A stretch of DNA of 64,000 nucleotides. Origin: Octopus vulgaris. Lineage: Eukaryota. The stretch lies in contig OX597834.1 in NCBI GenBank assembly GCA_951406725.2, positions 4,278,001-4,342,000 of the forward strand. Reading direction: 5' to 3'. A model generated the notes under the pieces. That model had not been told where the DNA came from, made no database searches, and was given only the letters and a program-made list of their open reading frames with translations. A program made the position numbers and the translations under genes. The first letter of the stretch is position 1. Each line of letters starts with the position of its first letter. Of the stretch, positions 5,947 through 62,145 are shown piece by piece.

Positions 5947-6176
5947 TTTTTGGATTTGGTTTGCGAGATTGTGCCTTATTTTATAACACACCAGTAAAAT
6001 TTCCACTTATTTCTTATTTTTATTGTCCTAAAATTTTCGTTGTGTCTTGCAACCTTTTCAATAGTTTTGACTCTCAAAATTTTTGGACAATAAAAATAAG
6101 AAAAAAGTGGAAATTTTACCAGTGAGTGTGTTACATAATAAGGCACAAACAGAAAATGACTCTCCCCAGACACAAC
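5947..6176. mobile_element. Penelope-type pseudo-LTR repeat with internal inversion (family F)
   Basis: Same sequence at 13700, 44895 and 61948; contains inverted arms and a hammerhead-like motif. Confidence 0.65.
6025..6071 (-). ncRNA. Minimal hammerhead ribozyme motif, U3-A8 variant
   Basis: Minus strand: GTC-aaaa-CTA TTGAAAA G GTTG-caagaca-CAAC GAAA ATTT TAG-GAC; stem I, core, stem II, GAAA, palindromic AATT stem III. Confidence 0.65.
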
Positions 6177-6620
6177 TTTAAAATAATGTAATTACATATA
6201 TCATTATTTTAGCTTAAAATTTTCATCTATTAGCAAAACTGTAGAATTCAAAGGAGTGGATTCATGGTTTGCATTGGCAAATAGTAATACAACATGTTGA
6301 ACTAGAAGAAATTTTTCGTTAACATTTATCAAATGATTTCATGTTTGTTTCATTATTAATTTTCTATAAATAGAATTAAGTTTTACAGCTGTAATAATTT
6401 TGACTTTGAATCTTTTTTGTGCGAGTGTGTTGTGGATAAGTGAAGGCTTTTTTCCAAATACTTCATCCATAACTTGACAATGTATATATTCGATTAATTA
6501 TTGATGTATTAAGCATCTTATTTTGGATAATGTAAATGTAAATTATGCTATCTTCTGTGAGCAATACAAATGTTTGTCCATTACAGCAATGTATAATCAA
6601 ATGCCTTATTTTTCTTCCTG

Positions 6621-6720
6621 ATGTTCACTGTGTTCACTAATGTTCACAATATGTTCACTGATGTTCACAATATGTTCACTGATGTTAACAATATGTTCAC
6701 TGATGTTCACAGTGTGTTCA
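6621..6720. repeat. ~21-bp minisatellite (ATGTTCACTGATGTTCACAAT)
   Basis: Four to five imperfect tandem units. Confidence 0.85.
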
Positions 6721-6898
6721 GTCTGCATTGGCAGCAGATTGCATTCCCAGAATACAGAATGATACCCTTTAGTGAACACATTGAGAAATGCGCAAAACAG
6801 CTACTACCACAATTTATAATCTTAAGAGACTGTAAATCCACTTTAGCTGAATAACTGTACATAAAATCTTGTATGTTCAAGATGACTTCATGCAAATG

Positions 6899-7322
6899 TG
6901 GCGCAGGAGTGGCTGTGTGATAAGTAGCTTGTTTACCAACCACATGGTTCCGGGTTCAGTCCCACTGCGTGGCACCTTGGGCAAGTGTCTTCTACTATAG
7001 CCTCGGGCCGACCAATGCCTTGTGAGTGGATTTGGTAGACGGAAACTGAAAGAAGCTCGTCATATATATGTATATATATATATATGTGTGTGTGTGTGTG
7101 CATGTGTGTTTGTGTGTTTGTCTCCCTAGCATTGCTTGACAACCGATGCTGGTGTGTTTATGTCCCCGTCACTTAGCGGTTCAGCAAAAGAGACCGATAG
7201 AATAAGTACTGGGCTTACAAAAAGAATAAGTCCCAGGGTCGAGTTGCTCGGCTAAAGGCGGTGCTCCAGCATGGCCGCAGTCAAATGACTGAAACAAGTA
7301 AAAGAGTAAAAGAGAGAGAGAG
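6899..7322 (+). mobile_element. tRNA-derived SINE (family A), full length
   Basis: GGCGCAGGAGTGGCTGTGTG head with A and B boxes; GGCGGTGCTCCAGCATGGCCGCAGTCAAATGACTGAAAC tail. Confidence 0.92.
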
Positions 7323-7736
7323 TCCACATCTATCAATAATGTATGTTGCGAAGAATTGATTTGCTTCTTTAATCACTCATTTGCTTTTAGTCATGAATAT
7401 TTTATTAATTCTGACTTTTTTTTTATTTGTTTGCATGGGTCTATTCATTCCTTCACATATTTTATACATACTTGTATATATATATCTGGGCCAATCTAAT
7501 TACTCAATTGACTTCATAAAAATTCCCTTGAATAATGCTCCACTTGAACTTGTACCCTTTCCCCTATTCAGAAATGCTAATTTATTCATATTACTTGTTC
7601 TGGCTTCTCCTCCAGGTTTCTGCTATATTTTCTCACGGTTCTACTCCAAGTCCTACACATTTAATTCTACCTGCACATACCAGTTGTACTAAACTTTATT
7701 GGCAATTCACACAGTTTTATTTGTTTCTGTTTCCAG

Positions 7737-7775
7737 CTGGCAGTTACCCTGGTGGGCAACCACCTTATGGCCAAG
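7737..7775 (+). CDS. 39-nt phase 1-1 coding microexon, (A)GSYPGGQPPYGQ(G), of a Gly/Tyr/Pro/Gln-rich protein
   Basis: Polypyrimidine tract plus TTCCAG acceptor, CAAG|GTAAGT donor, length divisible by 3, composition matches the other exons. Confidence 0.8.
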
Positions 7776-8056
7776 GTAAGTTTCAAGCCATTAAATATTA
7801 TCGATCCACCTCCTTTCTGGGATTATTGTAGAAGCCATGCAATTTCTTCTCATTTCTAATTTCTATCTGCTATACTGTTTTCAGTGATGTCGGTGGGCCT
7901 CCTAGTCTTACACAAGATTATATGTGCAAATGAATCAATGAAAGAGATTTGTAAAATGAGTATTTAAGCTGGCTAACATACATAATCCATTTTAAAGGTT
8001 AAGAAAATTTCTCATTCTCCTAGTATAGCCATAAAATTTTAGACATATTTCTAGTT

Positions 8057-59248: not shown

Positions 59249-59269
59249 GAGAGAAAGCAGGTTTTTTCC

Positions 59270-60600
59270 AGTGTTGCATGGATCACATGTCTTCTCTTTT
59301 GTGAGGTTCAACATCCTACAATCATCTTTCATCACTTCATTACATCCCTTTTTAGATCTTCATCTTCCACAGGCACCATTCACATTGAGCATCCAACATT
59401 GTCTTATGCAGATGTTGCCATCTGCACATCACATGCCCATACTAATGCAGTTGTCTCTATCAGGTTATTTGCACTGCATCATTTGTGCATTTTGATATTA
59501 GACTTCCAGTGAAGCAAGCTCACCTTGTTTTCTTTTTCTAGCCTTCACAGATCCTCTGCATTCAGGGCCTACATCTCACTACGTAGCATTACACTTCACA
59601 TACATGCAACATACAATTTGTTATTCAGACTGAAGGAGAGGCTTTTTGTTGGTAGCAGAGGTTAGTAGTTCCATGAATTTTCTTCACCTCTTTCTTATCT
59701 TGCTAGTTATACTTTCGGAGCACCTACTCTTGCTACTGATTAGGTCACCTTGGTAACAAAAGCTATTGACTGCTTCTAGGGAGCCTTCTGAACAAAGAGT
59801 CTATTTCCCAGGTACATTCGAGCGAGGTCGTTTCCAGTACCGCTGGACTGGCTCCTGTGCAGGTGACACATAAAAAACACCATTTGAGCGTGGCCGTTGC
59901 AAGTACCGCCTGACTGGCCCTCGTGCCGGTGGCATATAAAAGCACCCACTACACTCTCGGAGTGGTTGGCGTTAGGAAGGGCATCCAACTGTAGAAACTC
60001 TGCCAGATCAAGATTGGAGCCTGGTGCAGCCATCTGGTTCACCAGCCCTCAGTCAAATCGTCCAACCCATACCAGCATGGAAAGCGGACGTTAAATGATG
60101 ATGATGATGATGATGATTCCTCCTTGATGCTCTTGCGTACCTGTAAACATACAAAGGCTGCTTTTGTTGCCTACCTGTCCACAATCCCTCCACACTTTTT
60201 ATGCACCCACTTTTACATCTGGTACATTTTATGGAATTTCTGCCCCTTTTTCTTCGTACTCAGCATGGCCAGGTTCTTGACTGCATTAGGGCTTTGTTTT
60301 CTTTTTCACTTATCGTTTACTTTAGTCTCAAGTAAGTTTACTTCAAGGCCTTTCACTACCTCGGTTTGCTTCCATGCCTGGAATTTAATGTCTCACTCTT
60401 CCACAGATTCTGCTATTAAGAACAAAGTCATTAACCTACTGGAGTTCCCGTGCATCACCAGTCTTAGCTCTTTTTATAGCTTGGGGTCAATAATAAACAG
60501 GAAAGGGCTAAAGGTCAAGTCCCCCTCCTGCACACTAAGTTCATCACTACACTCATGCTGACTGCATTTCTGTACAAAGCTTGTATGGCATTAATCCATG
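59270..60600 (-). mobile_element. Decayed RTE RT fragment with a family B copy inserted at 59812-60116 (+)
   Basis: LEAVNSFCYQGDLIS..CSESITSKIR, homologous to 55110-55200. Confidence 0.7.
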
Positions 60601-60879
60601 AATTGTATAAAGGCTTACTTCTGTGTGTGTGTCTGTGTGTGTGCCTGAGTGAATCATATCATTACATTCTGTGCTTCACTTGAAAAACTACAGAGCTATC
60701 TATAAATGTTGGGTTTGTTTCTATTCTTCATGAACAAAACATCTTTAATTTGAAAAACAAATTTGTTTATAAAAAAAAATGACATCCGACCGAAGATAAT
60801 GCTTCAGTGAGGCGTGTCCATCTAATTCAAGCTAGCATGGAAAAGATAAGGTGATGTGCCAACATGTTCAGCAGAAGCC

Positions 60880-61022
60880 ACATGTGGAACCAACTATCAC
60901 TGTCGAAGAGAAATCCTGAAGGTTGTTGACAAGTTCATGCAGTTAGGCGTCACACTCTCCAGATCTGTGACTACTGATGAAGAAGTTGACACACACATTG
61001 TCAAGGGATGCTCAGCATTCAG
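60880..61022 (+). mobile_element. Short RTE (BovB-like) RT fragment
   Basis: LKVVDKFMQLGVTLSRSVTTDEEVDTHIVKGCSAF. Confidence 0.65.
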
Positions 61023-61468
61023 TGTGAGAGCATTCCTCTCCCACACTGCCCCCCCCCCCCCCCAAATACTTCAGTTGCCATTGGTCCCTGACTGCAATCT
61101 CACATCAGATTAATTCTTGTTTGTTTTTGATGTTATTTCTGTTACGTGCAAATACCCTGATCTACCCATGGCTGATCTACCCAATTACGATTGCTTTCTA
61201 GATAATATTTTCTTCTTTGACTTCACTACTACTCCTGAACCTGCTAGCTGCTTATCTCTCCTCTTCAGGTCAACTCAACTCCCCTTCCCTCTCTATCTCT
61301 TTGTCAAATATCCAGTGTCCTATCTCTTAGATACCGTACTAAACACTTCTCCTAATTACTCTCTCCTTGAACTGCAACACGGTAACTTAGTCATTGTTTT
61401 GTGCTAATTTCTACCAATATAAACTTGATATCAATTAACTTTATTTCAATTTATTTTTCTTATTTTAG

Positions 61469-61828
61469 GTTCTTCTGGAAATAAGGATAACCCTTTACCA
61501 CCTGGTTTTAATGTTCCAACTGGTGGTCAGCCTAGCTTCCCTCCACAACCATACGGCCAATCAGGCTATCCACCTCAGGCCTCCCAACCAGGTTACCCTC
61601 CACAACCTTCTCAACCTGGCTACCCTCCACAGCCTTCTCAACCAGGATACCCAGCACAGCCAGGCTATCCAGCACAGCCTTCACAACCAGGCTACCCAGC
61701 ACAGCCTTCACAACCAGGCTATCCAGCACAGCCTTCACAACCAGGCTATCCAGCACAGCCTTCACAACCAGGTTACCCATCGCAGCCTTCACAACCAGGT
61801 TACCCATCTCAGCCAGGCTACCCAGGAG
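61469..61828 (+). CDS. 360-nt phase 1-1 exon, GSSGNKDNPLPPGFNVPTGGQPSFPPQPYGQS(GYPPQPSQP/GYPAQPSQP)n..GYPG; annexin A7/A11-type N-terminal low-complexity region is the best guess
   Basis: TATTTTAG acceptor, GAG|GTAAGA donor, 120 open codons, nonamer repeats with synonymous variation; the track ORF 61511-61912 is the wrong frame. Confidence 0.92.
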
Positions 61829-61947
61829 GTAAGATTTTTATGTATTGATTTCTTTTTATCTATTTTTATAAGAGAGACACAAAGAAAGAGAGAAAGAGGA
61901 AGGAAGAGGTAGTTGAGATTCAATTAAATTAAATCTATTATATTACT

Positions 61948-62145
61948 GTTGTGTCTGGGGAGAGTCATTTTCTTTTTGTGCCTTATAATATAACACACTC
62001 ACCGGTAAAATTTCCCCGAGACCCCTAATGAAGGCTAGAGGGTATATCAGCCGAAACATTGTGTTAACAACAAACAAGATGAGGACAAATGTCCGTGTAA
62101 TTTAAATAATGTACATAATTCCTCATCTCTAAAATATAGAACTGA
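61948..62145 (+). mobile_element. Chimera of a family F arm and the family H hammerhead module (motif at 62020-62065)
   Basis: ...CACCGGTAAAATTTCCCC|GAGACCC CTAATGA A GGCTA..CAGCC GAAAC ATT GTGTT AACAACAAACAAGATGAGG. Confidence 0.72.

Follow-up and report, generated by a model that had tools for sequence, protein, structure and literature searches.

Putative hammerhead ribozymes with covarying 3–8 pairs in the terminal repeats of Octopus vulgaris Penelope-like elements

Results

Hammerhead-like motifs in the window

The window, a 64,000-nt stretch of the Octopus vulgaris genome (assembly GCA_951406725.2, contig OX597834.1, positions 4,278,001 to 4,342,000), contains copies of four repeat families, designated F, G, H, and K, each with a hammerhead-like motif, and a remnant of a Penelope-like element (PLE) ORF. 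Positions are those of the window, and core nucleotides follow hammerhead numbering.

5574..5635, minus strand: extra decayed family K motif, N3 at 5625, absent from the original prediction
5941..6176, minus strand: family F PLE end with inverted arm; U3-A8 minimal hammerhead at 6064–6028
13706..13949, plus strand: family F PLE end with inverted arm; U3-A8 motif, N3 at 13823
27905..28156, plus strand: family K end with short inverted arm; C3-G8 motif, N3 at 27981
32318..32443, plus strand: 5'-truncated family H end; N3 at 32358, mutated core
39850..40716, plus strand: disrupted 3' portion of a PLE ORF, comprising RT C-terminal and endonuclease-like pieces in two frames, immediately upstream of the H repeat
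40749..40825, plus strand: tRNA-like head of the H repeat, followed by (AAT)n; A-box-like sequence at 40756 and B-box-like sequence at 40799
40891..41017, plus strand: family H C3-G8 motif and element 3' end; N3 at 40898
44887..45168, minus strand: family F PLE end with inverted arm; U3-A8 motif, N3 at 45076, U17 at 45046
57378..57716, no strand assigned: family G foldback with arms head-to-head and a tail confined to the left arm
61941..62119, plus strand: chimera of an inverted F arm (61941–62015) fused to an H end; N3 at 62025, mutated core

All motifs cited in the original prediction were located, ~10–35 nt from where it had placed them. As it had also stated, most copies are mutated: just two of the nine cited arms pass the descriptor, namely the F motifs at 6061(–) (N3 6061, U17 6031) and 45076(–), both with a 4-bp stem II. 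The F motif at 13823(+) is damaged at 10.1 and in stem I, the two G3-C8 cores of the G foldback have a mutated stem III (N3 57596, plus strand) and a broken stem II (N3 57562, minus strand), and the K motif at 27981(+) has lost both G10.1 and U16.1. The H motif at 40898(+), described earlier as intact (40893), carries an A·A mismatch at 10.1–11.1 in stem II and lacks the cleavage triplet owing to a 3-nt deletion. Block-shuffling served as the control (60 windows): hits of every kind came to 0.53, and those with both a 2-nt palindrome and a Watson–Crick 3–8 pair to 0.017. Rfam covariance models returned no hammerhead match in the window at E ≤ 10, nor at E ≤ 5 in five loci with intact or near-intact copies, C3-G8 ones included. 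In the window itself, the copies are probably inactive.

Family-level architecture and the 3–8 pair

The four proposed motif families are real, and the majority sequences of F, G, H, and K all conform to the minimal type I hammerhead known from PLEs. They share a core N3-UGA-N-N8-A, one additional purine, G10.1-C11.1, GAAA, a short stem III, UU, and stem I, with the 3–8 majority pair being C3-G8 in H and K, U3-A8 in F, and G3-C8 in G. U4, G5, A6, A9, G12, A13, A14, A15.1-U16.1, and H17 are present in the majority sequences of F, G, and K and in the full form of H; stem II is closed by G10.1-C11.1 and stem I comprises at least 3 bp (3 bp in F). Of 15 copies chosen independently of 40893, 14 have the full form of H, without the 3-nt deletion; among 43 H arms near 40893, 31 have the deletion. 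Stem III, proposed to be mostly palindromic, is so in H, F, and G, and K (AGAGCU/AGAACU) has no true palindrome.

When the identities of N3 and N8 were not constrained, a Watson–Crick 3–8 pair was seen in 117 of the 129 motifs detected in 2.06 Mb of DNA enriched by searches for these families, and likewise in the majorities of all nine families that could be distinguished in this set. In 910 kb of random DNA the motif scan found 14 matches, and in 10 Markov simulations of the same length none. Genome-wide, there are 4,824 exact G3-C8 cores, with two loop II types, and no occurrence of the reversed pattern. The claim that the 3–8 pair covaries and always stays Watson–Crick holds for family majorities and homologous ends, but not for single copies, since 10 out of the 23 G arms of a set rich in chromosome C16 have G3·G8.

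The repeats had been regarded as unrelated, but the ends of F, G, and K can be aligned with one another and with those of a K-like family. In an unguided alignment of one copy from each (four sequences, with the structure drawn by hand), 24 of 24 cells are paired and three of six pairs, 3–8 included, are changed on both sides. Between the homologous ends of F, G, and K, both the 3–8 pair and stem II covary.

Connection to Penelope-like coding sequence

Walking upstream from the repeats took us into PLE coding sequence (RT and C-terminal endonuclease) for long copies of F and of G and for the H copy of the window. For G, a GIY-YIG-like ORF was reached in four of nine long loci (Pfam PF01541 with 23.1 bits in locus L344), the ORF ending 1.0–1.8 kb before the core. 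For F, 5 of the 30 loci extend to an endonuclease with 40–54% identity to that of G, located ~0.6 kb upstream of the core. For H, the ORF end is joined to the tRNA-like head in the window copy and in 3 of 29 other loci. The ORF piece at 39850..40716 matches a 781-aa PLE ORF (tblastn, E 7.6e-9) and shares its end with loci L014, L023, and L024; a Pfam search with four pieces of this remnant gave nothing meaningful, and by similarity H would belong to an endonuclease-bearing PLE. Upstream of K (29 matches), three 1.25-kb stretches were examined and contained no ORF. F, G, and H are ends of protein-coding PLEs, and the Penelope derivation originally proposed for all these repeats is supported by coding sequence for these three families, K showing no ORF link in the stretches examined. 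A search starting from GIY-YIG sequences led to other PLE families, with no link to H, F, G, or K in 30 + 20 loci; a separate U3-A8 hammerhead follows 14 of the 30 GIY-YIG loci, most of them from a young 781-aa PLE, a family in which some copies have an uninterrupted ORF. No full-length copy of F, G, H, or K was recovered.

The tRNA-like head is present in 11 of 16 H inverted arms; relaxed ARAGORN calls coincide with it in 5 of 30 loci, and it is contiguous with the ORF end in 4 of 30. A stand-alone SINE is a less likely reading of H, since the window copy and three other loci join the ORF end to the head.

Ends of the copies

The insertions are characterized by 5' truncation, an adjacent inverted arm, and an optional tail. 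Their 5' ends cluster 11–27 nt upstream of N3 (23 of 30 in G, 29 of 30 in F), at the start of a distal helix formed with the downstream region, for which the predicted energies are –12.9 kcal/mol in F (versus –7.2 shuffled) and –12.9 kcal/mol in G (versus –9.7 shuffled). Starts at the hammerhead cut site are restricted to one of 30 direct G arms and one of 66 inverted arms, which rules out this site as the origin of the 5' ends. Because so few arms start there, and because the core-broken G3·G8 subgroup nonetheless multiplied, the copies derive from RNA uncut at the hammerhead. H arms with the 3-nt deletion are a further core-broken subgroup that multiplied. Splicing might also account for the sharp 5' end of G, where an acceptor-like motif (CTAAC...TTTCTCAG) is located, but no exon-1 joint was found in RNA-seq reads and F is without a pyrimidine tract.

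Predicted folding and cleavage

In the predicted monomer folds, stems I and II are present in the F and G copies; folding of K and H copies did not favour stem I. Dimers through helix III are predicted to be very weak (+2.2, –0.2, and –1.7 kcal/mol for F, G, and H, respectively) and lose to longer pairings that bury A13, A14, and U17. Cleavage by dimers of these copies is doubtful, since the arms are inverted rather than tandem and helix III of F consists of four A-U pairs. Read ends showed no pile-up in three RNA-seq runs of one species, ordinary cDNA libraries that constitute a weak test.

Discussion

Minimal PLE hammerheads, including forms with U3-A8 and U17, are already published. Those described from metazoan PLE terminal repeats (min-HHR; Cervera and De la Pena 2014, PMC4209133) resemble the present ones in being type I, with an extra nucleotide before stem II, G10.1-C11.1, a palindromic 15.2–16.2, and a short stem I, and in occurring mostly solo or as opposite-strand pairs. 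U3-A8 was reported there with ~1,300 hits in S. mansoni, following the first natural 3–8 covariation, also U3-A8 (Perreault et al. 2011, PMC3088659). The Cercyon row of PMC4209133 has the UUGAAAA core of F, its oyster row the AUUU of F, and U17 occurs in ~24 of the 56 rows of its Fig. S3 (counted from the PDF text). The statement that the U3-A8 and G3-C8 families would be missed by a CUGANGA search is true, but for U3-A8 the problem was solved in 2014, and the C3-G8 families, for their part, also go undetected by Rfam. In contrast to the homologous ends with three different 3–8 pairs found here, those 56 rows contain no G3 and no cephalopod. G3-C8, present in G, is not named in the natural core variants section of PMC3088659, and in the literature searched we met it solely as an engineered C3G/G8C change giving partial cleavage rescue in the anole Poseidon element PAc (Frangieh et al. 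2024, PMC11167929). The same searches, in which subscription journals are poorly covered so that absence from print is not implied, found no paper on a natural G3-C8 or an octopus hammerhead. The PAc ORF begins inside the hammerhead, whereas nothing of the kind was seen for G.

According to PMC11167929, the PAc hammerhead lies upstream of two RT start sites, yielding a tail; the main template is RNA that has not been cut, and no reads terminate at the cut. By analogy, the octopus PLE protein may start reverse transcription at two sites ~100–170 nt downstream of the core, which would give two 3' ends, and the cDNA would usually end early and then fold back, which would give the short head-to-head pairs. 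The ribozyme would cut a fraction of transcripts only, helped by protein or a second RNA. PLE insertions in the accounts of Craig et al. (2021, PMC8557442) and Arkhipova et al. (2013, PMC3846280) likewise show 5' truncation, an adjacent inverted arm, a one-end tail, and a palindrome or microhomology at the junction. For a tRNA-like promoter within the terminal repeat, as in H, we found no counterpart in these two accounts. Schistosoma SINE-like hammerhead elements (PMC6765202) also have a polymerase III-type promoter beside the hammerhead; they are, however, tandem and non-coding, whereas H is a coding-PLE end inserted as inverted pairs.

It is likely, judging from the sequences, that the motifs are hammerhead-shaped RNAs belonging to the 3' terminal repeats of three or more protein-coding PLE families, represented here by short, mostly mutated copies, and that the ribozymes of the parent elements are weak, protein-assisted self-cleavers whose 3–8 positions changed yet remained paired. 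An alternative is that the fold persists as a non-catalytic signal in the RNA, serving protein binding or limiting cDNA length, with cleavage lost in F and G. The derivation of copies from uncut RNA, their 5' ends at the start of the distal helix, and the unimpaired insertion of hammerhead mutants in vitro are all consistent with such a signal. We nevertheless consider it unlikely, since G5, A6, A9, G12, A13, A14, and a Watson–Crick 3–8 pair, positions required for the active fold, are retained though the family proteins are only ~50% identical.

Independent non-autonomous retrozymes or SINEs, cleaving efficiently as tandem dimers and spreading via cut or circular RNA, are less probable still. 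Most copies are indeed short and non-coding, the H inverted arms often carry the tRNA-like head, and retrozymes are themselves PLE-derived; but long copies have PLE coding sequence upstream, the pairs are head-to-head and not the tandem units expected of a non-LTR retrozyme, and the copy ends do not map to the cut. For F and G, these observations largely refute that origin. The failure of the Rfam models in the window and five loci and the small number of descriptor-passing arms could point to a chance resemblance in A/T-rich repeats, which we regard as highly improbable; it is refuted at the family level, given the empty simulations, the placement in PLE ends, the covariation, and the agreement with the published minimal consensus.

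A further proposal, which we put forward tentatively and at slightly less than even chances, is that G represents a natural, active G3-C8 hammerhead with thousands of intact copies, and that the sister lineages F, G, and K passed through all three tested Watson–Crick 3–8 forms, which would reveal long-term selection for catalysis despite insertion from uncut RNA.

These elements bear on the role of PLE hammerheads, which are poor cutters alone and dispensable for insertion in vitro. Homologous PLE ends with C-G, U-A, and G-C at 3–8 constitute a natural covariation experiment, and the occurrence of all three pairs argues for selection on the active fold. Since neither a CUGANGA nor a UUGANAA search detects the 4,824 exact cores that belong to G, descriptors should leave N3 and N8 free, and a natural G3-C8 core would widen the known sequence space of the hammerhead.

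Hammerhead motifs in the window

All of the cited motifs were found in the window, which is on contig C21 of a 2.8-Gb genome, and two of the nine cited arms, those with N3 (core position 3) at 6061(-) and 45076(-), passed a minimal type I hammerhead descriptor. Both belong to family F, one of four families (H, F, G, and K) of hammerhead-bearing repeat ends; matches to a descriptor of the strict kind in shuffled controls amounted to 0.017 (60 shuffled windows). The H copy at 40893, called intact in the original prediction, is not intact. Rfam searches returned no hammerhead match in the window or in five loci picked for good copies.

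Further features of the window
5139-5265, coreless K-type 3' end fragment
5725-5820, coreless K-type 3' end fragment
27549-27642, coreless K-type 3' end fragment
12910-13075, foldback of another Penelope-like element (PLE) end, of the family of locus L317 (CCGAAGA core)
61941-62119, inverted F arm fused to an H end via a common AAATTTCC stretch
61429-61848 and 9842-9966, coding-like tandem repeats rich in proline/glycine/tyrosine/glutamine (PGYPPQPSQ)
8820-9395, 49356-50620, and 54731-55192, fragments resembling, by motif, LINE endonuclease and reverse transcriptase

The centre of the foldback is a near-palindromic stem III, with the 5' core absent from both arms, and its family sits behind a GIY-YIG ORF in locus L352. 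The F–H fusion is a chimera between two PLE families, and the PGYPPQPSQ-type repeats are possibly host gene exons.

Abundance and majority motifs of the families

Genome searches gave 2,162 (H), 765 (F), 1,515 (G), and 288 (K) candidates, 40 of which were scored per family. Evenly spaced DNA (800 kb) contained 11 matches for H, three each for F and G, and two K-like ones, which implies a copy number in the thousands up to the tens of thousands for each family.

Majority motifs (core / stem II / stem III with cut triplet; U17, predicted cleavage-site nucleotide)
H: CUGAUGA / GGCUG-CAGCC / A CG U, U17
F: UUGAAAA / GUUGC-GCAAC / A AU U, U17
G: GUGAACA / GUCGC-GCGAC / A AUAU U, U17
K: CUGAAGA / GUCAC-GUGAC (allowing for CpG decay) / A GAGC or GAAC U, U17

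Of the G arms, 11 of 25, 7 of 41, and 18 of 41 were descriptor-intact in sets picked on upstream sequence, on downstream sequence, and on the motif itself, respectively; the counts were 16/34 and 19/43 for F (two sets), 1/38 for K, and 1/19 and 2/49 for H (two sets). The exact G3–C8 pattern occurs 4,824 times in the genome against 0 for a reversed control, with two distinct loop II sequences among the 100 matches listed. Another abundant minimal hammerhead family, with a CCGACGA core (C4 variant; loci L127, L141, L157, L180, L192, L194, L356, and L362), accounts for the intact motif met most often in evenly spaced DNA.

Covariation of positions 3 and 8

With N3 and N8 left free, a scan of 2.06 Mb, a pool enriched by the family searches, yielded 129 motifs, in which the 3–8 pair was U-A in 53, G-C in 45, C-G in 19, G·G in 8, and other in 4; evenly spaced DNA (910 kb) gave 14 matches, versus 0 in ten Markov simulations. 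The pair had been described as always Watson–Crick. This holds for the majority pair in all nine distinguishable families and fails as a strict rule, because G3·G8 is present in 10 of 23 G arms of one set, mostly from chromosome C16, versus 1/26 and 0/28 in two other sets. C16 (loci L316–L352 of genome G000) has 34 of the 42 matches to the upstream region of G, and the G3·G8 subgroup is also on it, as are the best of the long F copies; this concentration may reflect local retrotransposition or a sex chromosome.

When one end each of F, G, K, and a K-like family was aligned without guidance, the cores fell in register, with similarity extending through the tail. All 24 cells of the 3–8 and five stem II pairs were paired, and three of these pairs had changed on both sides; with four sequences, this is indicative only. 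The ends, originally described as unrelated repeats, are thus homologous, and covariation between homologous ends is the stronger observation.

Link to PLE coding sequence

Five of the 30 F loci extend, ~0.6 kb upstream of the core, into an endonuclease 40–54% identical to that of G. For H, the window carries the broken end of a PLE ORF (39850-40716; E = 7.6e-9 by tblastn), the pieces of which had no Pfam match and pointed in Atlas, with low shares, to clusters of HTH_animal and GIY-YIG. After ~30 nt comes a tRNA-like head, and then (AAT)n and the hammerhead; the junction between ORF end and head is common to 3 of 29 other H loci. This polymerase III-type head (40749-40825; also loci L004, L013, L021, and L154) lies within the terminal repeat of the coding PLE family H, is copied in both arms, and could permit the short copies' own transcription. 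K copies have a CA-rich upstream sequence in common, in which no ORF was reached. A U3–A8 hammerhead is located downstream of 14 of 30 GIY-YIG loci, mostly of one young PLE family, whose 781-aa reverse transcriptase and GIY-YIG ORF is uninterrupted in many copies (L207, L231, and about 20 more places) and precedes the hammerhead by ~1 kb.

On their 5' side, the short copies have an inverted arm, and their 3' end lies at either of two positions, as in the PLE footprint described in the available parts of PMC8557442 and PMC3846280. Their sharp 5' boundary, immediately upstream of stem I, falls together with a helix predicted to form with the downstream region; 29 of 30 F arms, in a set picked on the motif and so biased, diverge from the long reference 11–13 nt before N3, and G arms start ~21 nt before N3. 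Only in G (loci L255–L283), a branch-point-like CTAAC and a TTTCTCAG splice-acceptor-like motif are found just 5' of the hammerhead, exactly at the start of most short copies. The available part of PMC4209133 describes an intron ending at helix I in D. virilis Penelope.

Comparison with known PLE hammerheads

Minimal PLE hammerheads with an extra nucleotide and palindromic helix III, as well as opposite-strand pairs, low activity, and U3–A8, are found in the accessible text of Cervera and De la Pena 2014 (PMC4209133), and natural U3–A8 was first reported by Perreault 2011 (PMC3088659). U17 is common in the published PLE set (PMC4209133, same portion), so that the cleavage triplets, originally considered suboptimal, need no special caveat. 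Natural G3–C8 was not found in the literature searched, of incomplete coverage, which contained only an engineered variant (PMC11167929, available in part). Judged from sequence, the repeats are real and represent a known class with one apparently undescribed natural core variant, the putative G3–C8 ribozyme.

According to the available part of PMC11167929, the anole PLE (Poseidon PAc) has two reverse transcription start sites downstream of its hammerhead, which cleaves only in the presence of protein and is partly restored by C3G/G8C, and insertion does not need hammerhead cleavage. The data for the families described here fit this behaviour. Among 30 G arms picked solely on sequence 3' of the cut (two from one locus), the whole core was present in 27, and copies started 52–64 nt before the cut in 23 and at the cut in one; of 66 inverted arms, one begins within -6 to +4 of the cut site. 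Core-broken subgroups have multiplied. In RNA-seq of a coded species (species B), reads of both orientations covered the G end (1,071, 805, and 798 reads) and retained G3 and C8, with no read-end pile-up over this end, a weak test. Helix III duplexes are weak by prediction, and the head-to-head arrangement of the pairs makes dimer cleavage in cis unavailable. The ribozymes of the parent elements are likely to be weak and assisted, and the genomic copies are probably inert for the most part.
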